A stretch of 64,000 nucleotides of DNA from Escherichia coli (lineage in GTDB: Bacteria > Pseudomonadota > Gammaproteobacteria > Enterobacterales > Enterobacteriaceae). Positions 4,362-38,735 of this stretch are shown here, piece by piece. The position numbers and the translations under genes were made by a program. A model generated the notes under the pieces. That model did no database searches and was not told the DNA's origin. It saw only the letters and a list, made by a program, of their open reading frames with translations. Within the stretch, counting starts at the first letter, position 1. Every line of letters starts with the position of its first letter. Location: NCBI RefSeq assembly GCF_024298765.1, contig NZ_CP101210.1, one strand, 5' to 3'.

Positions 4362-4400
4362 CAGTGTATTGGTAGCTAAAAAGCCAGGGGCGGTAGCGTG
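4362..4400 (+). promoter_or_regulatory. JUMPstart element with ops (GGCGGTAGCGTG, 4389-4400) in colanic acid operon leader
   Basis: cagtgtattggtagctaaaaagccaggggcggtagcgtg about 180 bp upstream of wza; ops is the RfaH recruitment site. Confidence 0.85.
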
Positions 4401-8332: not shown

Positions 8333-8356
8333 CGACGCCTGCATTCGCACCGCCCC

Positions 8357-8391
8357 GTAGGCCGGATAAGGCGCTCACGCCGCATCCGGCA
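8357..8391. repeat. REP element downstream of wzc
   Basis: GTAGGCCGGATAAGGCGC...GCCGCATCCGGCA palindromic unit. Confidence 0.7.
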
Positions 8392-8424
8392 AGCAAACCA
8401 GCTCATAAGCCGGGAGAACAACCT

Positions 8425-18739: not shown

Positions 18740-18845
<106 letters not shown>

Positions 18846-18931
18846 AATGCGAAACCGAGATGTAAATAACGACAAAAACAAAATTGGCCGTTTCGGTCAG
18901 GGCCAACTATTGCCTGAAAAAGGGTAACGAC

Positions 18932-20302
18932 ATGAAAAAATTAACCTGCTTTAAAGCCTATGATATTCGCGGGAAATTAGGCGAAGAACTGAATGAAGAT
19001 ATCGCCTGGCGCATTGGTCGCGCCTATGGCGAATTTCTCAAACCGAAAACCATTGTGTTAGGCGGTGATGTCCGTCTCACCAGCCAAACCTTAAAACTGG
19101 CGCTGGCAAAAGGTTTACAGGATGCGGGCGTTGACGTGCTGGATATTGGTATGTCCGGCACCGAAGAGATCTATTTCGCCACGTTCCATCTCGGCGTGGA
19201 TGGCGGCATTGAAGTTACCGCCAGCCATAATCCGATGGATTATAACGGCATGAAGCTGGTTCGCGAGGGGGCTCGCCCGATCAGCGGAGATACCGGACTG
19301 CGCGACGTCCAGCGTCTGGCTGAAGCCAACGACTTTCCTCCCGTCGATGAAACCAAACGCGGTCGCTATCAGCAAATCAACCTGCGTGACGCTTACGTTG
19401 ATCACCTGTTCGGTTATATCAATGTCAAAAACCTCACGCCGCTCAAGCTGGTGATTAACTCCGGGAATGGCGCAGCGGGTCCGGTGGTGGACGCCATTGA
19501 AGCCCGCTTTAAAGCCCTTGGCGCACCCGTGGAATTAATCAAAGTGCACAACACGCCGAACGGCAATTTCCCCAACGGTATTCCTAACCCGCTACTGCCG
19601 GAATGCCGCGACGACACCCGCAATGCGGTCATCAAACACGGCGCGGATATGGGCATTGCCTTTGATGGCGATTTTGACCGCTGCTTCCTGTTTGACGAAA
19701 AAGGGCAGTTTATCGAAGGCTACTACATTGTCGGCCTGCTGGCAGAAGCGTTCCTCGAAAAAAATCCCGGCGCGAAGATCATCCACGATCCACGTCTCTC
19801 CTGGAATACCGTTGATGTGGTGACTGCCGCTGGCGGCACGCCGGTGATGTCGAAAACCGGACACGCCTTTATTAAAGAACGTATGCGCAAGGAAGACGCC
19901 ATCTACGGTGGCGAAATGAGCGCCCACCATTACTTCCGTGATTTCGCTTACTGCGACAGCGGCATGATCCCGTGGCTGCTGGTCGCCGAACTGGTGTGCC
20001 TGAAAGATAAAACGCTGGGCGAACTGGTACGCGACCGGATGGCGGCGTTTCCGGCAAGCGGTGAGATCAACAGCAAACTGGCGCAACCCGTTGAGGCGAT
20101 TAACCGCGTGGAACAGCATTTTAGCCGTGAGGCGCTGGCGGTGGATCGCACCGATGGCATCAGCATGACCTTTGCCGACTGGCGCTTTAACCTGCGCACC
20201 TCCAATACCGAACCGGTGGTGCGCCTGAATGTGGAATCGCGCGGTGATGTGCCGCTGATGGAAGCGCGAACGCGAACTCTGCTGACGTTGCTGAACGAGT
20301 AA
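18932..20302 (+). CDS. cpsG: Phosphomannomutase (colanic acid copy)
   Basis: Start taken at [14 protein letters not shown] (456 aa), not the track start 18884; phosphohexomutase fold with TASHNP. Confidence 0.95.
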
Positions 20303-20312
20303 TGTCATTACT

Positions 20313-20417
20313 TTCCCCCTCACCCTGACGCTCTACTGCCTGCGGAGAGAAGTGAGCACGGAACTTTCTTCTCCCCCTCGCCCCTTTGGGGAGAGGGCCG
20401 GGGTGAGGGGCGAGGCG
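20313..20417. repeat. GC-rich imperfect palindromic element between cpsG and wcaJ
   Basis: CCCCCTCACCC (20316-20326) pairs with GGGTGAGGGG (20401-20410); inner CTCCCCCTCGCCCC / GGGGAGAGGG arms. Confidence 0.5.
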
Positions 20418-20437
20418 ACAATAGAACAGGAACAACG

Positions 20438-21832
20438 ATGACAAATCTAAAAAAGCGCGAGCGAGCGAAAACCAATGCATCGTTAATCTCTATGGTGCAA
20501 CGCTTTTCAGATATCACCATCATGTTTGCCGGACTATGGCTGGTTTGCGAAGTCAGCGGACTGTCATTCCTCTACATGCACCTGTTGGTGGCGCTGATTA
20601 CGCTGGTGGTGTTCCAGATGCTGGGCGGCATCACCGATTTTTATCGCTCATGGCGCGGTGTTCGGGCAGCGACAGAATTTGCCCTGTTGCTACAAAACTG
20701 GACCTTAAGCGTGATTTTCAGCGCCGGACTGGTGGCGTTCAACAATGATTTCGACACGCAACTGAAAATCTGGCTGGCGTGGTATGGGCTGACCAGTATC
20801 GGACTGGTGGTTTGCCGTTCATGTATTCGTATTGGGGCGGGCTGGCTGCGTAATCATGGCTATAACAAGCGCATGGTCGCCGTAGCGGGGGATTTAGCCG
20901 CCGGACAAATGCTGATGGAGAGCTTCCGTAATCAGCCGTGGTTAGGGTTTGAAGTGGTGGGGGTTTACCACGACCCGAAACCGGGCGGCGTTTCTAACGA
21001 CTGGGCGGGCAATCTTCAACAGCTGGTCGAGGACGCGAAAGCGGGCAAGATTCATAACGTCTATATCGCGATGCAAATGTGCGACGGCGCGCGAGTGAAA
21101 AAACTGGTCCATCAATTGGCGGACACCACCTGTTCGGTGTTGCTGATCCCCGATGTCTTTACCTTCAACATTCTCCATTCACGTCTTGAAGAGATGAACG
21201 GCGTTCCGGTGGTGCCGCTTTACGACACGCCGCTTTCCGGGGTTAACCGCCTGCTCAAACGTGCGGAAGACATTGTGCTGGCGACGCTTATTCTGCTGCT
21301 GATCTCCCCGGTGCTGTGCTGTATTGCGCTGGCGGTGAAACTCAGTTCACCAGGGCCGGTTATTTTCCGCCAGACTCGCTATGGCATGGATGGCAAACCG
21401 ATCAAAGTGTGGAAGTTCCGTTCGATGAAAGTGATGGAGAACGACAAAGTGGTGACTCAGGCGACGCAGAACGATCCGCGCGTCACCAAAGTGGGGAACT
21501 TTCTGCGCCGCACCTCGCTGGATGAACTGCCGCAGTTTATCAATGTGCTGACCGGGGGGATGTCGATTGTGGGGCCACGTCCGCACGCAGTAGCGCATAA
21601 CGAACAGTATCGCCAGCTCATTGAAGGCTACATGCTGCGCCATAAAGTGAAACCGGGCATTACTGGCTGGGCGCAGATTAACGGCTGGCGCGGCGAAACC
21701 GACACGCTGGAGAAAATGGAAAAACGCGTCGAGTTCGACCTTGAGTACATCCGCGAATGGAGCGTCTGGTTCGATATCAAAATCGTTTTCCTGACGGTGT
21801 TCAAAGGTTTCGTTAACAAAGCGGCATATTGA
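20438..21832 (+). CDS. wcaJ: Undecaprenyl-phosphate glucose-1-phosphate transferase
   Basis: 464 aa; N-terminal TM segments and C-terminal sugar-transferase domain. Confidence 0.9.
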   Translation: MTNLKKRERAKTNASLISMVQRFSDITIMFAGLWLVCEVSGLSFLYMHLLVALITLVVFQMLGGITDFYRSWRGVRAATEFALLLQNWTLSVIFSAGLVAFNNDFDTQLKIWLAWYGLTSIGLVVCRSCIRIGAGWLRNHGYNKRMVAVAGDLAAGQMLMESFRNQPWLGFEVVGVYHDPKPGGVSNDWAGNLQQLVEDAKAGKIHNVYIAMQMCDGARVKKLVHQLADTTCSVLLIPDVFTFNILHSRLEEMNGVPVVPLYDTPLSGVNRLLKRAEDIVLATLILLLISPVLCCIALAVKLSSPGPVIFRQTRYGMDGKPIKVWKFRSMKVMENDKVVTQATQNDPRVTKVGNFLRRTSLDELPQFINVLTGGMSIVGPRPHAVAHNEQYRQLIEGYMLRHKVKPGITGWAQINGWRGETDTLEKMEKRVEFDLEYIREWSVWFDIKIVFLTVFKGFVNKAAY

Positions 21833-23312: not shown

Positions 23313-23329
23313 GTTGCTGTTTTCGGTTC

Positions 23330-23535
23330 CGACAACGGTTGCCGGATGCGGCGTAAAACGCCTTATCCATCCTACGGTTCCGTGCTCGGGACCTGTAGGC
23401 CTGATAAGACGCGTCAGCGTCGCATCAGGCACTGAATGCCGGATGCGGCGTGAACGCCTTATCCGGCCTACGGTTCTGTGCTCGGGTCTTGTAGGCCTGA
23501 TAAGACGCGTCAGCGTCGCATCAGGCAAAAAGCGG
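23330..23535. repeat. BIME: about four REP palindromic units in alternating orientation, with an internal ~96-bp tandem duplication
   Basis: Alternating GCCGGATGCGGCGT(A/G)AACGCCTTATCC and GGCCTGATAAGACGCGTCAGCGTCGCATCAGGC units; the long track ORF 23314-24867 reads through them artefactually. Confidence 0.8.
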
Positions 23536-23586
23536 CAACGAACAAAACAAACACAGCCCACCTGGCATCAAATTTATGAGGAAAAA

Positions 23587-24867
23587 ATGAAATTACTTAT
23601 TCTGGGCAACCACACTTGCGGCAATCGTGGCGACAGCGCCATCCTGCGCGGCTTACTTGATGCCATCAACATCCTCAATCCACACGCCGAAGTGGACGTG
23701 ATGAGCCGCTATCCGGTCAGTTCTTCCTGGCTGCTCAACCGCCCGGTAATGGGCGATCCGCTGTTCCTGCAAATGAAACAACACAACAGCGCGGCGGGCG
23801 TTGTCGGGCGCGTTAAAAAAGTCCTCCGTCGCCGCTACCAGCATCAGGTATTGCTCTCACGCGTCACCGACACTGGCAAGCTGCGTAATATCGCCATCGC
23901 CCAGGGATTCACCGACTTCGTGCGCCTGCTGTCAGATTACGACGCCATTATTCAGGTCGGCGGATCGTTTTTTGTCGATCTCTACGGCGTGCCGCAGTTT
24001 GAACATGCACTTTGCACGTTTATGGCGAAAAAGCCGCTGTTTATGATTGGTCACAGCGTCGGTCCCTTCCAGGATGAGCAATTTAACCAACTGGCGAACT
24101 ACGTTTTTGGTCACTGCGACGCGCTGATCCTGCGCGAATCGGTCAGCCTTGATCTGATGAAACGCAGCAATATCACTACCGCAAAAGTGGAACATGGCGT
24201 CGATACCGCGTGGCTGGTCGATCACCACACAGAAGAATTCACCGCCAGCTATGCCGTTCAACACTGGCTGGACGTTGCCGCACAACAGAAAACGGTGGCA
24301 ATTACCCTGCGCGAACTGGCACCGTTCGACAAACGTCTCGGCACCACTCAACAAGCGTATGAAAAAGCCTTTGCCGGGGTGGTCAATCGCATTCTCGACG
24401 AAGGCTATCAGGTTATTGCGCTCTCCACCTGTACGGGCATCGACAGCTATAATAAAGACGACCGCATGGTGGCGCTCAATCTTCGCCAGCACATCAGCGA
24501 TCCTGCCCGTTACCACGTGGTGATGGATGAACTCAACGATCTGGAAATGGGCAAAATTCTCGGAGCCTGTCAACTCACCGTCGGTACGCGTCTGCACTCA
24601 GCCATTATCTCGATGAATTTCTCCACTCCGGCAATTGCCATCAACTACGAACATAAATCCGCCGGGATTATGCAGCAGCTGGGGCTGCCAGAGATGGCGA
24701 TCGATATCCGTCATTTATTAGATGGCAGCCTGCAAGCGATGGTTGCGGATACCTTAGGCCAGCTTCCGGCGCTGAACGCACGACTTAGCGAAGCCGTCAG
24801 TCGCGAACGTCAGACGGGAATGCAGATGGTGCAATCTGTGCTTGAGCGCATCGGGGAGGTGAAATGA
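23587..24867 (+). CDS. wcaK: Colanic acid pyruvyl transferase
   Basis: Start taken at MKLLILGNH (426 aa) downstream of the REP cluster; synteny. Confidence 0.9.
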   Translation: MKLLILGNHTCGNRGDSAILRGLLDAINILNPHAEVDVMSRYPVSSSWLLNRPVMGDPLFLQMKQHNSAAGVVGRVKKVLRRRYQHQVLLSRVTDTGKLRNIAIAQGFTDFVRLLSDYDAIIQVGGSFFVDLYGVPQFEHALCTFMAKKPLFMIGHSVGPFQDEQFNQLANYVFGHCDALILRESVSLDLMKRSNITTAKVEHGVDTAWLVDHHTEEFTASYAVQHWLDVAAQQKTVAITLRELAPFDKRLGTTQQAYEKAFAGVVNRILDEGYQVIALSTCTGIDSYNKDDRMVALNLRQHISDPARYHVVMDELNDLEMGKILGACQLTVGTRLHSAIISMNFSTPAIAINYEHKSAGIMQQLGLPEMAIDIRHLLDGSLQAMVADTLGQLPALNARLSEAVSRERQTGMQMVQSVLERIGEVK

Positions 24868-30011: not shown

Positions 30012-30050
30012 CAGTGAGTTGGTAACTGTTAAGCCAAGGGCGGTAGCGTG
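30012..30050 (+). promoter_or_regulatory. JUMPstart element with ops (GGCGGTAGCGTG, 30039-30050) in O-antigen operon leader
   Basis: cagtgagttggtaactgttaagccaagggcggtagcgtg; same 39-bp architecture as the wza leader copy. Confidence 0.85.
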
Positions 30051-33318: not shown

Positions 33319-34440
33319 ATGGCTAAAGTCGCTCTCATTACTGGCATAACCGGACAAGACGGTTCTTACCTGGCAGAGTTTCTGCTGGAAAAAGGTTACG
33401 AGGTGCATGGTATTAAGCGTCGTGCATCGTCATTCAACACCGAGCGCGTGGATCACATTTATCAGGATCCGCACACCTGCAACCCGAAATTCCATCTGCA
33501 TTATGGCGACCTGAGTGATACCTCCAACCTGACGCGCATTTTGTGTGAAGTGCAGCCGGATGAAGTGTACAACCTTGGCGCAATGAGTCACGTTGCGGTC
33601 TCTTTTGAGTCACCGGAATATACCGCAGACGTTGATGCGATGGGTACGCTGCGCCTGCTCGAGGCGATCCGCTTCCTCGGTCTGGAAAAGAAAACCCGTT
33701 TCTATCAGGCTTCCACTTCTGAACTGTACGGTCTGGTGCAGGAGATTCCGCAGAAAGAGACCACGCCGTTCTACCCACGCTCTCCGTATGCAGTCGCCAA
33801 ACTGTACGCCTACTGGATCACCGTTAACTACCGCGAATCCTACGGCATGTACGCCTGTAACGGTATTCTCTTTAACCATGAATCCCCGCGCCGCGGCGAA
33901 ACCTTCGTTACCCGCAAAATCACCCGCGCAATCGCCAACATCGCACAGGGGCTGGAGTCGTGCCTGTACCTCGGCAATATGGATTCCCTGCGTGACTGGG
34001 GCCACGCCAAAGACTACGTAAAAATGCAGTGGATGATGCTGCAACAGGAACAGCCGGAAGATTTCGTCATCGCTACCGGCGTTCAGTATTCCGTGCGTCA
34101 GTTCGTGGAAATGGCGGCAGAGCGAGTCGGAATCAAACTGCGTTTTGAAGGCGCAGGTGTAGATGAGAAAGGGATAGTGGTTTCTGTTAATGGTGAGGAT
34201 GCTCCAGCAGTTAAACCTGGAGATGTAATCGTTAAGGTTGACCCGCGTTACTTCCGTCCGGCTGAAGTTGAAACACTGCTCGGCGACCCGACCAAAGCGC
34301 ACGAAAAACTGGGCTGGAAACCGGAAATCACCCTCAGAGAGATGGTGTCTGAAATGGTGGCTAATGACCTCGAAGCGGCGAAAAAACACTCTCTGCTGAA
34401 ATCTCACGGCTACGACGTGGCGATCGCGCTGGAGTCATAA
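33319..34440 (+). CDS. gmd: GDP-mannose 4,6-dehydratase (O-antigen copy)
   Basis: 373 aa; near-identical to colanic acid gmd apart from a divergent patch at about 34110-34255. Confidence 0.95.
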
Positions 34441-34442
34441 GC

Positions 34443-35408
34443 ATGAGTAAACAACGCATTTTTATCGCTGGCCATCGTGGGATGGTCGGTTCTGCCATCA
34501 GGCGGCAGCTCAAACAGCGCGGTGATGTGGAACTGGTATTACGCACCCGCGACGAGCTGAACCTGCTGGACAGCCGCGCGGTGCATGATTTCTTTGCCAG
34601 CGAACGCATTGACCAGGTCTATCTGGCGGCGGCGAAAGTGGGCGGCATTGTTGCCAACAACACCTATCCGGCGGATTTCATCTACCAGAACATGATGATT
34701 GAGAGCAACATCATTCACGCCGCGCATCAGAACGACGTGAACAAACTGCTGTTTCTCGGATCGTCCTGTATCTACCCGAAACTGGCAAAACAGCCGATGG
34801 CAGAAAGCGAGTTATTGCAGGGCACGCTGGAGCCGACCAACGAGCCTTACGCCATTGCCAAAATCGCCGGGATCAAACTGTGCGAATCTTACAACCGCCA
34901 GTATGGACGCGATTACCGCTCAGTCATGCCGACCAACCTGTACGGGCCGCACGACAACTTCCACCCGAGTAACTCGCACGTGATCCCTGCATTGCTGCGT
35001 CGCTTCCACGAGGCGACGGCACAGAATGCGCCGGACGTGGTGGTGTGGGGCAGCGGTACACCGATGCGCGAATTTCTGCACGTTGATGATATGGCAGCGG
35101 CGAGCATTCATGTGATGGAGCTGGCGCACGAAGTCTGGCAGGAGAACACCCGGCCGATGCTGTCGCACATTAACGTCGGCACGGGCGTTGACTGCACTAT
35201 CCGTGAGCTGGCGCAAACCATCGCCAAAGTGGTGGGTTACAAAGGTCGGGTGGTTTTTGATGCCAGCAAACCGGATGGTACGCCGCGCAAACTGCTGGAT
35301 GTGACGCGCCTGCATCAGCTTGGCTGGTATCACGAAATCTCACTGGAAGCGGGGCTTGCCAGCACTTACCTGTGGTTCCTTGAGAATCAAGACCGCTTTC
35401 GGGGGTAA
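34443..35408 (+). CDS. fcl: GDP-L-fucose synthase (O-antigen copy)
   Basis: 321 aa; nucleotide-identical to colanic acid fcl across the whole gene by line-by-line comparison. Confidence 0.95.
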
Positions 35409-35911
35409 TGATGTTTTTACGTCAGGAAGACTTTGCCACGGTAGTGCGCTCCACCCCGCTTGTCTCCCTCGACTTTATTGTTGAGAACAGTCGCGGCGAG
35501 TTTCTGCTTGGCAAAAGAACCAACCGCCCGGCGCAGGGTTACTGGTTTGTGCCGGGAGGGCGCGTGCAGAAAGACGAAACGCTGGAAGCCGCATTTGAGC
35601 GGCTGACGCTTGCGGAACTGGGGTTGCGTCTGCCGATAACAGCAGGCCAGTTTTACGGTGTCTGGCAGCACTTTTATGACGATAACTTCTCCGGCTCGGA
35701 TTTCACCACTCACTATGTGGTGCTCGGTTTTCGCATCAGAGTAGCGGAAGAAAAGCTGTTACTGCCGGATGAGCAGCATGACGATTACCGCTGGCTGACG
35801 CCGGACGCGTTGCTCGCCAGTGACAATGTTCACGCTAACAGCCGAGCTTATTTTAATCATGATCCAAGAGCTGTTATTGGTTTAGATAAAAAGGATGTCA
35901 AAAATGTCTGA
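35408..35911 (+). CDS. gmm: GDP-mannose mannosyl hydrolase (O-antigen copy, divergent C-terminus)
   Basis: 167 aa; first ~145 aa near-identical to colanic gmm, then diverges after ...NSRAYF; 3' end overlaps manC. Confidence 0.85.
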
Positions 35912-37352
35912 TGTACCGTTGATTGCTGTTGTAATGGCTGGTGGTACGGGTAGCCGTCTTTGGCCCCTCTCAAGAGAGCACTATCCGAAGCAATTTCTGC
36001 AATTATCAGGTGAGAATACTTTATTACAGTCAACCTTATTACGACTATCCCCGCTTTCTTGCGAAACTCCATTAGTAATAACAAATGAGCAACATCGCTT
36101 TGTGGTTGCAGAACAATTACGTCAAATTGATCAGTTAAGAGATAATATTATTCTTGAGCCATGTGGAAGAAATACGGCTCCCGCCATAGCTCTTTCAGCA
36201 TTTACAGCTTTGAAGCGTAATGAACAACAGGATCCTATTTTGTTGATTCTCGCAGCTGACCATATTATAAGCAAAGCGGATGTTTTTTGTGACGCTATTC
36301 AAAAATCGAAAACTGTAGCTGAACAGGGGAATATTGTAACCTTTGGGATTATACCTGAATATGCGGAAACAGGTTATGGTTATATAAAAAAAGGAGATCC
36401 TTTTAAAATTTTACCAAATATTACTGATGATAAGTTTTATCATGTCCAACAATTTATTGAAAAACCTAACCATTCGACGGCAGAAGAGTATGTTTCCACA
36501 GGAGAATATCTCTGGAATAGTGGAATGTTTATGTTTAAAGCATCAGTATATTTAGAGGAATTGAAAAAGCACAGGCCTGATATATACGAAATCTGTGAGC
36601 AGACAGCTTCATTATCCTATAACGATCTTGATTTCATACGATTGCCTAAACATATTTTCCAAGATTGTCCGTCGGAATCAATTGATTTTGCGGTTATGGA
36701 AAAAACAAAAAATTGCATTGTTCGTCCAGTAGACATCGGGTGGAGTGATGTAGGCTCTTGGCATTCTTTGTGGGATATTAGTGATAAAACGCAGGATGGA
36801 GATGTCTGTAAAGGTGATATTCTAACTTATAACACTAAAAACAATTATATATATTGTGAATCAGCCCTAGTGGCTGCTGTAGGTGTAGAAGATATAGTTA
36901 TTGTTCAAACAAAAGATGCTATTCTCGTGTCCAAAAAAACTGAGGTTCAGGATGTAAAAAAAATAGTAGAAATGCTTAAGGAACATGAGCGCTCAGAGTA
37001 TATATCGCATCGAGAGGAGTTTCGGCCTTGGGGAAAATTTGATGCGATAGATCAGGGAGAACGATATAAAGTTAAAAAGATAGTTGTGAAACCCGGCGAA
37101 GGACTATCCTTACGAATGCACCATCATCGTTCTGAGCATTGGATTGTTCTTTCCGGCACAGCAAAAGTAACTTTAAACGATAAAACAGTATTGCTTGCTG
37201 CAAATGAATCAATCTACATTCCTCTAGGAGCAACGTATAGTCTTGAAAATCCAGGAATAATCCCTCTGAATCTTATTGAGGTTAGTTCAGGCGATTATTT
37301 AGGTGAGGATGATATTGTACGGCAAAAAGAACGCTACAGAATAGATGACTAA
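35895..37352 (+). CDS. manC: Mannose-1-phosphate guanylyltransferase (O-antigen copy, divergent and AT-rich)
   Basis: 485 aa; [12 protein letters not shown] nucleotidyltransferase motif; clearly diverged from cpsB in protein and composition. Confidence 0.9.
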
Positions 37353-37355
37353 TAT

Positions 37356-38735
37356 ATGAAAAAATTAACCTGCTTTAAAGCCTATGATATTCGCGGGAAA
37401 TTAGGTGAAGAACTGAATGAAGATATCGCCTGGCGCATTGGTCGCGCCTATGGCGAATTTCTCAAACCGAAAACCATTGTGTTAGGCGGTGATGTCCGCC
37501 TCACCAGCGAAACCTTAAAACTGGCGCTGGCAAAAGGTTTGCAGGATGCGGGCGTCGATGTGCTGGATATTGGTATGTCCGGCACCGAAGAGATCTATTT
37601 CGCCACGTTCCATCTCGGCGTGGATGGCGGCATTGAAGTTACCGCCAGTCATAATCCGATGGATTACAACGGCATGAAACTGGTGCGCGAAGGGGCTCGC
37701 CCGATCAGCGGCGATACCGGACTGCGCGATGTCCAGCGTCTGGCAGAAGCCAACGACTTTCCTCCCGTTGATGAAACCAAACGCGGTCGCTATCAGCAAA
37801 TCAACCTGCGTGACGCTTACGTTGATCACCTGTTCGGTTATATCAGTGTCAAAAACCTTACGCCGCTCAAGCTGGTGATTAACTCCGGGAACGGCGCGGC
37901 GGGTCCGGTGGTGGACGCCATTGAAGCCCGCTTTAAAGCCCTCGGCGCACCGGTGGAATTAATCAAAGTACACAACACGCCGGACGGCAATTTCCCCAAC
38001 GGTATTCCTAACCCGTTGCTGCCGGAATGCCGCGACGACACCCGTCATGCGGTCATCAAACACGGCGCGGATATGGGCATTGCCTTTGATGGCGATTTTG
38101 ACCGCTGTTTCCTGTTTGACGAAAAAGGGCAGTTTATCGAGGGCTACTACATTGTCGGCTTGCTGGCACAAGCGTTCCTCGAAAAAAATCCCGGCGCGAA
38201 GATCATCCACGATCCACGTCTCTCCTGGAACACCGTTGATGTGGTGACTGCCGCAGGCGGCACCCCGGTAATGTCGAAAACCGGACACGCCTTTATTAAA
38301 GAACGGATGCGCAAGGAAGACGCCATCTACGGTGGCGAAATGAGCGCCCACCATTACTTCCGTGATTTTGCTTACTGCGACAGCGGCATGATCCCGTGGC
38401 TGCTGGTCGCCGAACTGGTGTGTCTGAAAGGAAAAACGCTGGGCGAACTGGTGCGCGACCGGATGGCAGCATTTCCGGCAAGCGGTGAGATCAACAGCAA
38501 ACTGGCGGACCCCGTTGAGGCGATTAACCGCGTGGAACAGCATTTTAGCCGTGAGGCGCTGGCGGTGGATCGCACCGATGGCATCAGTATGACCTTTGCC
38601 GACTGGCGCTTTAACCTGCGCTCCTCCAACACCGAACCGGTGGTGCGCCTGAATGTGGAATCGCGCGGTAATATAGCATTAATGAATGAACAGGTTGAAT
38701 TTATTACAAAATTTTTAAACGGTGATGGTTTATGA
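37356..38735 (+). CDS. manB: Phosphomannomutase (O-antigen copy)
   Basis: 459 aa; near-identical to cpsG in the stretches compared except the last ~20 codons. Confidence 0.95.

Follow-up and report, generated by a model that had tools for sequence, protein, structure and literature searches.

The cpsG–wcaJ junction

The DNA analysed here, a 64,000-nucleotide stretch hereafter called the window, is a segment of the Escherichia coli chromosome that carries the colanic-acid (cps/wca) cluster. Every gene of this cluster from wza (4579) to wcaM (27489) lies on the + strand, 3' of an ops element at 4389–4399. Exact ops/JUMPStart cores (GGCGGTAGCGT) occur twice in the window, at this position upstream of wza and again at 30039–30049 downstream of galF, where the core stands at the head of the O-antigen cluster. 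The O-antigen region also contains a second set of GDP-sugar genes (33319–35854 and 36738–38672); compared with the K-12 colanic-acid genes, its gmd-fcl-gmm-like part is 95% and its manB-like part 96% identical, and its manC-like part only 64%. Duplicates as similar as these, separated by about 15 kb, could serve as substrates for recombination.

The feature under study occupies the gap between cpsG and wcaJ. With the last base of cpsG at 20302 and the first of wcaJ at 20438, this intercistronic spacer measures 135 bp and is longer than the approximately 105 bp given in the preliminary description; its palindromic part spans roughly 20316–20415. An identical spacer (100%) lies between the annotated cpsG and wcaJ genes of E. 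coli O26:H11 11368. On the opposite strand, two open reading frames (20187–20480 and 20320–20523) overlap the spacer, running antisense through the 3'-terminal part of cpsG and the 5'-terminal part of wcaJ. The features of the junction are the following:

20300–20302, + strand: cpsG stop codon TAA, directly 3' of which the structured region begins (from the annotation of the identical O26:H11 locus)
20303–20437, + strand: cpsG–wcaJ intercistronic spacer, long allele, 135 bp (54 bp in K-12)
20316–20352, − strand: decayed inverted boxC/TMECO unit, type-A-like, CCCCTCACCC-TGA-CGCTCTACT-GCCTGC-GGAGAGAAG
20353–20374, + strand: linker between the units, TGAGCACGGAACTTTCTTCTCC, which forms an inner hairpin with 20344–20352 and whose 3' part lies within the 56-bp repeat
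20356–20411, + strand: 56-bp stretch shared with non-orthologous copies, e.g. K-12 282085–282140 (91%)
20375–20410, + strand: intact TMECO/PIT 36-mer, type B one mismatch, CCCTCGCCC-CTTTG-GGGAGAGGG-CCG-GGGTGAGGG-G
20406–20415, + strand: extra G block AGGGGCGAGG, the perfect complement of CCTCGCCCCT at 20376–20385
20428–20440, + strand: wcaJ Shine-Dalgarno AGGA (20428–20431) and ATG (20438–20440), unpaired in the predicted fold

A head-to-head pair of boxC units

Repeats termed boxC have reportedly been described in E. coli and Enterobacteriaceae by Bergler in 1992 and Bachellier in 1999. According to Holder et al. 2015 (PMC4666352), the boxC repeat named in E. coli during the 1990s, the PIT elements that Hoyne & Maher described in 2000 and 2002, and the TMECO motif all form a single family, whose consensus reads CCCTCNCCC-N3-6-GGGNGAGGG-N3-GGGNGAGGG, then [G/T/C/-] (PMC4666352). 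Across the 64 kb searched, this consensus matches exactly once, at 20375–20409 (+), with 0 matches expected from 100 shuffles. The 36-mer at 20375–20410 is identical to K-12 TMECO no. 3, a type B unit with one mismatch (Table 1, PMC4666352), and the O26:H11 11368 copy at the corresponding site appears as TM no. 391 in the published catalogue (NC_013361 2875141–2875106; Holder et al. 2015 supplement), an entry that was matched by its coordinates, the Holder et al. supplements being without these gene names.

The left unit (20316–20352) is less well preserved. Its first block is intact, the other two blocks carry 3 mismatches each against the consensus, and it falls outside the strict TMECO motif. 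It aligns column for column with the intact inverted type-A units that Kluyvera, Enterobacter and Buttiauxella carry at the same site. When the two units were tested as a pair, the right unit proved to be type B, with a CCG loop, and the left unit showed a TGA loop where TAA is expected and departed from the family at 6 of the 24 specified block positions. The feature in the cpsG–wcaJ spacer consists of two boxC (PIT/TMECO) units arranged head to head, the right one intact and the left one decayed; its outer arms are the third blocks of both units, and its inner arms are the C block and the first G block of the right unit. The pair has the same architecture as the K-12 inverted pair between lldD and trmL.

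The length and dispersal of the element agree with this identity. Non-orthologous matches cover 56 bp (query positions 46–101), which is the classical boxC length (56 bp, range 51–59; PMC5172473, PMC2267715). A 55-bp core finds matches in 4,940 of 5,426 complete E. coli genomes, at a median of 12 places per genome, and queries of 110–135 bp do so at a median of 6 places per E. coli genome. The copy-number search that had been proposed as a check thus returned a dispersed core and excluded single-copy status. By every sequence-level criterion that can be tested, the feature is a boxC/PIT/TMECO element. The preliminary description had guessed at a described GC-rich, boxC-like family, and in this it was right, given the exact consensus match and the catalogued copy at the site. 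It had also named identification as a known annotated repeat devoid of any transcript effect as the outcome that would count against its own reading; the known-repeat part of that outcome holds, since the copy already stands in a published catalogue and the element was therefore already known, and the palindrome as a finding is to this extent largely explained away.

The K-12 copies at lldD–trmL and yagA–yagE share a T-rich lead-in and a linker (…TGCACCGAGC..TCTTTTC-CCCTCGCCCC…). As lead-in and linker are common to other boxC copies, the repeated unit exceeds the 36-nt triplex motif, and the inverted boxC pair plus linker may be a repeated composite in its own right.

Predicted RNA structure

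An inverted-repeat search returned four nested inverted repeats in all: 20316–20334 with 20392–20410 (19 nt, 84% complementary), 20374–20384 with 20400–20410, 20376–20385 with 20406–20415 (10 nt, 100% complementary) and 20344–20352 with 20368–20376. The arms picked out by eye in the preliminary description are all present, the outer pair as CCCCCTCACCC at 20315–20325 (1 base off the position given) and GGGTGAGGGG at 20401–20410, and the inner pair, exactly as given, as CTCCCCCTCGCCCC at 20371–20384 and GGGGAGAGGG at 20388–20397.

The + strand RNA of 20300–20440 is predicted to form a very stable intra-operon hairpin of −59.0 kcal/mol (z = −3.7); dinucleotide shuffles gave a mean of −45.8 ± 3.6 kcal/mol (n = 200), and 0 of the 200 were as stable. 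The predicted structure comprises a 12-bp outer stem (20316–20327 with 20400–20411) enclosing two inner hairpins. The − strand folds slightly more weakly (−57.2 kcal/mol, z = −2.5). With the G block at 20406–20415, the C block of this 'mismatch' unit has a second possible partner, which pairs with it better than the canonical partner does, and Enterobacter hormaechei carries the same extra G block AGGGGCGAGG 3' of its boxC unit.

Two familiar classes of hairpin were considered as identities for this structure and set aside. The claim that it is not a canonical REP is borne out: the REP core (GCCGGATGCGGCG... / ...CTTATCCGGCCTAC) has 0 matches in 20303–20437, compared with counts of 3, 1 and 10 for the three remaining large spacers, and REP/BIME identity was rejected. 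An intrinsic terminator was likewise rejected, as no U/T tract follows the stem and the sequence runs on as CGACAATAGAACAGG. A terminator scan of 19900–20800 found nothing terminator-like within the element (20311–20420); two terminator-like sites lie outside it, the first spanning the stop codon of cpsG and the second within wcaJ, and shuffles lead one to expect just as many. A promoter scan over the same interval (19900–20800) found no promoter-like site, and a search of 19800–20900 against Rfam 15 at a permissive E-value returned only unrelated eukaryotic families, the best at E of about 1–8, far below the gathering threshold.

The other large spacers of the operon have contents of their own. 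The wzc–wcaA spacer (8333–8424), the site of a described attenuator, is occupied by a REP (GTAGGCCGGATAAGGCGCTCACGCCGCATCCGGCAAGC), and its fold is unremarkable (z = −1.7). The cpsB–cpsG spacer (18740–18931; 192 bp) contains REP/BIME sequences, e.g. GTCGGATGCGGCGTGAACGCCTTATCCAACCTAC, folds at −67.6 kcal/mol (z = −3.6) and is also polymorphic in length, measuring 104 bp in K-12. The wzxC–wcaK spacer (23313–23587; about 275 bp) holds two BIME-like REP pairs with 10 REP-core matches, and parts of it match each other as well as the cpsB–cpsG spacer.

The junction across Enterobacteriaceae

A scan with WcaJ, covering a single genome for each species, located 80 loci, from 74 of which the spacer was extracted, with a usable length in 73; together with the window and K-12, these make up a survey set of 75 spacers. 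Almost all of them contain a GC-rich hairpin, placed soon after the cpsG stop and 5' of a conserved ribosome-binding region. The median fold z across the 75 is −3.2, and 81% have z < −2. At least one boxC-type C block together with at least one G block is found in 47 of the 75 spacers, and three or more blocks in 29. Single or paired boxC units are carried by Enterobacter, Lelliottia, Kluyvera, Buttiauxella, Superficieibacter, Pluralibacter, Pseudenterobacter and Phytobacter. The arms keep their polarity, C-rich 5' and G-rich 3', in 54 spacers, and are reversed in 2. The REP core, as a regular expression derived from E. coli REPs, was found in 0 of the 73 other-genome spacers.

The sense RNA is the more stable in 51 spacers and the antisense RNA in 21, and in the group with short alleles (E. 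coli, E. whittamii, Citrobacter and Salmonella arizonae) 97.8% of stem cells are paired, as against 44–66% in a slid control in which partners were moved by 1–3 columns; because the surveyed species are related and not independent, the pairing and the sense/antisense shuffle statistics overstate significance. Within this group, three stem pairs are altered on both sides, one of them dividing A-U:G-C at 7:7, and the loop varies freely. Template switching between the arms of a DNA palindrome can also restore their complementarity in the absence of selection. Salmonella arizonae retains the junction hairpin; the TMECO motif has been reported to be completely absent from Salmonella (PMC4666352).

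The boxC units themselves are arranged in more than one way. Some genera have the asymmetric loop TTA before CCG and others the reverse, and single intact units are found on either strand, which indicates that it is the hairpin that is conserved and not the triplex-capable strand. Where genera carry boxC, the sequence of the blocks is itself conserved, beyond pairing alone, and this conservation suggests either a constraint or an exchange of sequence among repeat copies that a simple hairpin role leaves unexplained. The literature searched yielded no description of a cpsG–wcaJ hairpin across genera, nor of a function for boxC after 2015, and the persistence of the junction hairpin across genera, often built from boxC, may be a new observation and a modest lead. 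One contig in the scan bears the label Chryseobacterium sp. 18061, yet its WcaJ shares 81% identity with the E. coli protein and its spacer is of the enterobacterial type; it is probably a contaminated or mislabelled assembly.

Two alleles in E. coli

Within E. coli the junction exists in two main forms. A 541-bp search found the long allele of the window in 509 of 4,849 matching genomes, or about 10% of complete E. coli, and nearly all other sampled records showed the 459–461-bp span of the short allele. In this majority allele, which K-12 also carries, the spacer is 54 bp long and contains a hairpin of 9 bp, CCCTTACCC-CACTGC-GGGTAAGGG. The two forms differ also beside the arms, where GGATCTT stands against ATTACTTT and CTAAT against CGAGGCGACAATAG; these differing bases rule out a simple insertion into the K-12 sequence and indicate allele replacement rather than a clean insertion or deletion. 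Among the long alleles there are micro-variants in which 1 nt is missing from a C or G run, the G of the CCG loop is replaced by T, or 8 nt are deleted.

The gene flanks of long- and short-allele strains are up to 100% identical over about 200 bp. A recent transfer into a K-12-like background is unsupported, since the cps cluster of the window as a whole is only about 97–98% identical to that of K-12; the 100% identity of the immediate flanks reflects conserved gene ends. With both alleles circulating in flanks that can be identical, a swap between a 25-nt and a 100-nt hairpin is seemingly tolerated. The presence or absence of boxC at cpsG–wcaJ is a common polymorphism of E. coli that involves a catalogued repeat, and as found it matters little. 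The natural allelic series that it provides (135-bp boxC pair, 54-bp short-hairpin form and micro-variants of each) could nonetheless be used for testing whether boxC has any effect on mRNA.

A possible mRNA boundary and its alternatives

The explanation that we favour joins an identity, that of a boxC pair, to a proposed role at an mRNA boundary; taken as a whole, with the identity as its firm part, it is held with high confidence. Its mechanistic part is a model in which the pair would serve passively, as an mRNA hairpin that sets cpsG apart from wcaJ, and this model on its own merits a little under even credence. Under this model the spacer would be transcribed within the long RfaH/ops-dependent cps transcript, in which the hairpin would start directly after the cpsG stop and end 17–27 nt before the wcaJ ATG, so leaving the ribosome-binding site free. 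It could then act as a block to 3'-to-5' exonucleases or as a processing boundary, and the upstream sugar-nucleotide genes and the wcaJ-wzxC-wcaKLM segment might thereby be given different mRNA stabilities. REP hairpins separate mRNA stabilities in other operons, and those in the other three large spacers of this operon may play the same boundary role. The hairpin of the long allele would do the same work as the short hairpin found at the junction in nearly all Enterobacteriaceae, with the boxC sequence as one among several interchangeable ways of building it. The fold with its free Shine-Dalgarno sequence (z = −3.7), the conserved arm polarity (54 vs 2) and the pairing of the short stems (97.8%) are consistent with such a role, and the preservation of a junction hairpin from genus to genus lends indirect support to the processing or stabilising element suggested in the preliminary description; the negative PIT reporter tests, as far as the summary of Hoyne & Maher in PMC4666352 describes them, argue against an mRNA role.

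The most serious competitor holds that the repeat is neutral or selfish, without function at this site and tolerated in one of the few harmless gaps of the operon, and that the hairpins of other species are remnants of an ancient boxC pair whose palindromy was maintained by inter-arm deletions, which leave a smaller hairpin, and by template switching; we regard this as a plausible account, though one that falls well below an even chance. It draws strength from the family itself, which remains without an assigned function after several studies and whose paired units collapse to leave a stem-loop, the 'palindrome effect' (Holder et al., PMC4666352). The short hairpin arms CCCTTACCC/GGGTAAGGG and CCCTCTCCC/GGGAGAGGG resemble boxC blocks, the micro-variants at the polymorphic E. 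coli site fit the local instability reported for TMECO loci, and palindromic repeats fill all the other large spacers of the operon. A neutral 25-nt hairpin, however, should have been lost over the divergence of Escherichia, Salmonella, Citrobacter, Kosakonia and Leclercia, in the course of which the loop and the flanks have been randomised, whereas both its position and its polarity are conserved; and REPs, although they far outnumber boxC in E. coli, have no core match in any of the 73 spacers (by an E. coli-derived expression). A further alternative places the activity in the DNA, where on unwinding the G-rich strand would form a purine triplex, or the palindrome a cruciform, that stalls replication or transcription and promotes local rearrangement, making the junction a hotspot of variability beside the O-antigen region. 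Type B one-mismatch oligonucleotides do form an intrastrand purine-motif triplex in the isolated G-rich strand, as followed by CD and NMR, and this is stable in vitro, with a Tm of about 70 °C; TMECO loci also vary more than the control loci do (PMC4666352). Here the triplex-capable strand is the non-template strand of the operon, and the site shows both allelic and micro-indel variation. Against this stand the missing signal in duplex DNA and the missing protection in in-vivo DMS footprints (PMC4666352), the negative outcome of earlier in-vivo tests of polymerase blockage in so far as PMC4666352 summarises them, the orientation of the units, which varies by genus (+ only, − only or both) with the A/B arrangement flipped in some, and the existence of short alleles that have no third block at all, and we judge the proposal improbable.

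Less probable still is that the hairpin, through intrinsic or Rho-dependent termination, works as an attenuator or partial terminator and lowers transcription of wcaJ–wcaM unless RfaH is bound. The operon does have an ops element, clusters for colanic acid and for group 1 capsules are described as having a comparable stem-loop attenuator after wzc (PMC2516531, PMC3438125), and the C-rich 5' arm, being the first to leave the polymerase, might by inference briefly load Rho. Nevertheless, the stem is followed by CGACAATAGAACAGG in place of a U tract, and the terminator scan is blank within the element. The PIT elements tested by Hoyne & Maher acted neither as terminators nor as promoters and left RNA polymerase unaffected, on the abridged account in PMC4666352. 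The partial terminator entertained in the preliminary description is unsupported.

A broader claim would be that a functional intercistronic RNA hairpin, C-rich in its 5' arm and G-rich in its 3' arm, has been kept at this junction throughout the Enterobacteriaceae, with boxC units as its ancestral or recurrent material. We consider this claim possible but rather doubtful. If true, it would make cpsG–wcaJ the first site that ties boxC/TMECO, a family without a known function after 30 years, to a conserved role, and it would mean that repeats supposed to be unstable are able to persist at one orthologous site across genera. The presence of a hairpin in so many genera immediately 5' of the gene for the initiating transferase WcaJ suggests that colanic-acid operons mark this boundary for a reason.

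Comparison with known systems

The REP/BIME (PU) palindromes are said, from the work of Higgins, Newbury and colleagues, to act as barriers to mRNA 3'-exonucleases. The element described here resembles them in being a GC-rich extragenic palindrome, transcribed within an operon between cistrons, and in its proposed way of working. It differs in belonging to an unrelated sequence family without a REP core, and boxC copies number in the tens whereas REPs number in the hundreds. Unlike REPs, boxC is not known to stabilise mRNA.

A stem-loop attenuator after wzc in group 1 capsule clusters was reportedly described by Rahn and Whitfield in 2003. Like the element at cpsG–wcaJ, this attenuator, known from K30 and Klebsiella clusters, is a hairpin inside a long RfaH-dependent polysaccharide operon, and as the capsule-cluster attenuator lies directly upstream of wbaP, the gene for the initiating phosphoglycosyltransferase, so the element here lies upstream of wcaJ. 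It occupies another junction, however, and is Rho-independent (predicted or shown), whereas the element here is without a U tract; it is also far weaker, at about −8 kcal/mol predicted in Kp13 (PMC2516531, PMC3438125).

The closest likeness is to boxC/PIT/TMECO itself, with which the element shares the exact consensus, the 56-bp length, the intergenic position and the multiple copies; its inverted arrangement of a type-B and a decayed type-A-like unit recalls the A + B pairs of the family. The decay of the left unit and the extra G block after the right one set it apart from other members, and neither of these is essential.
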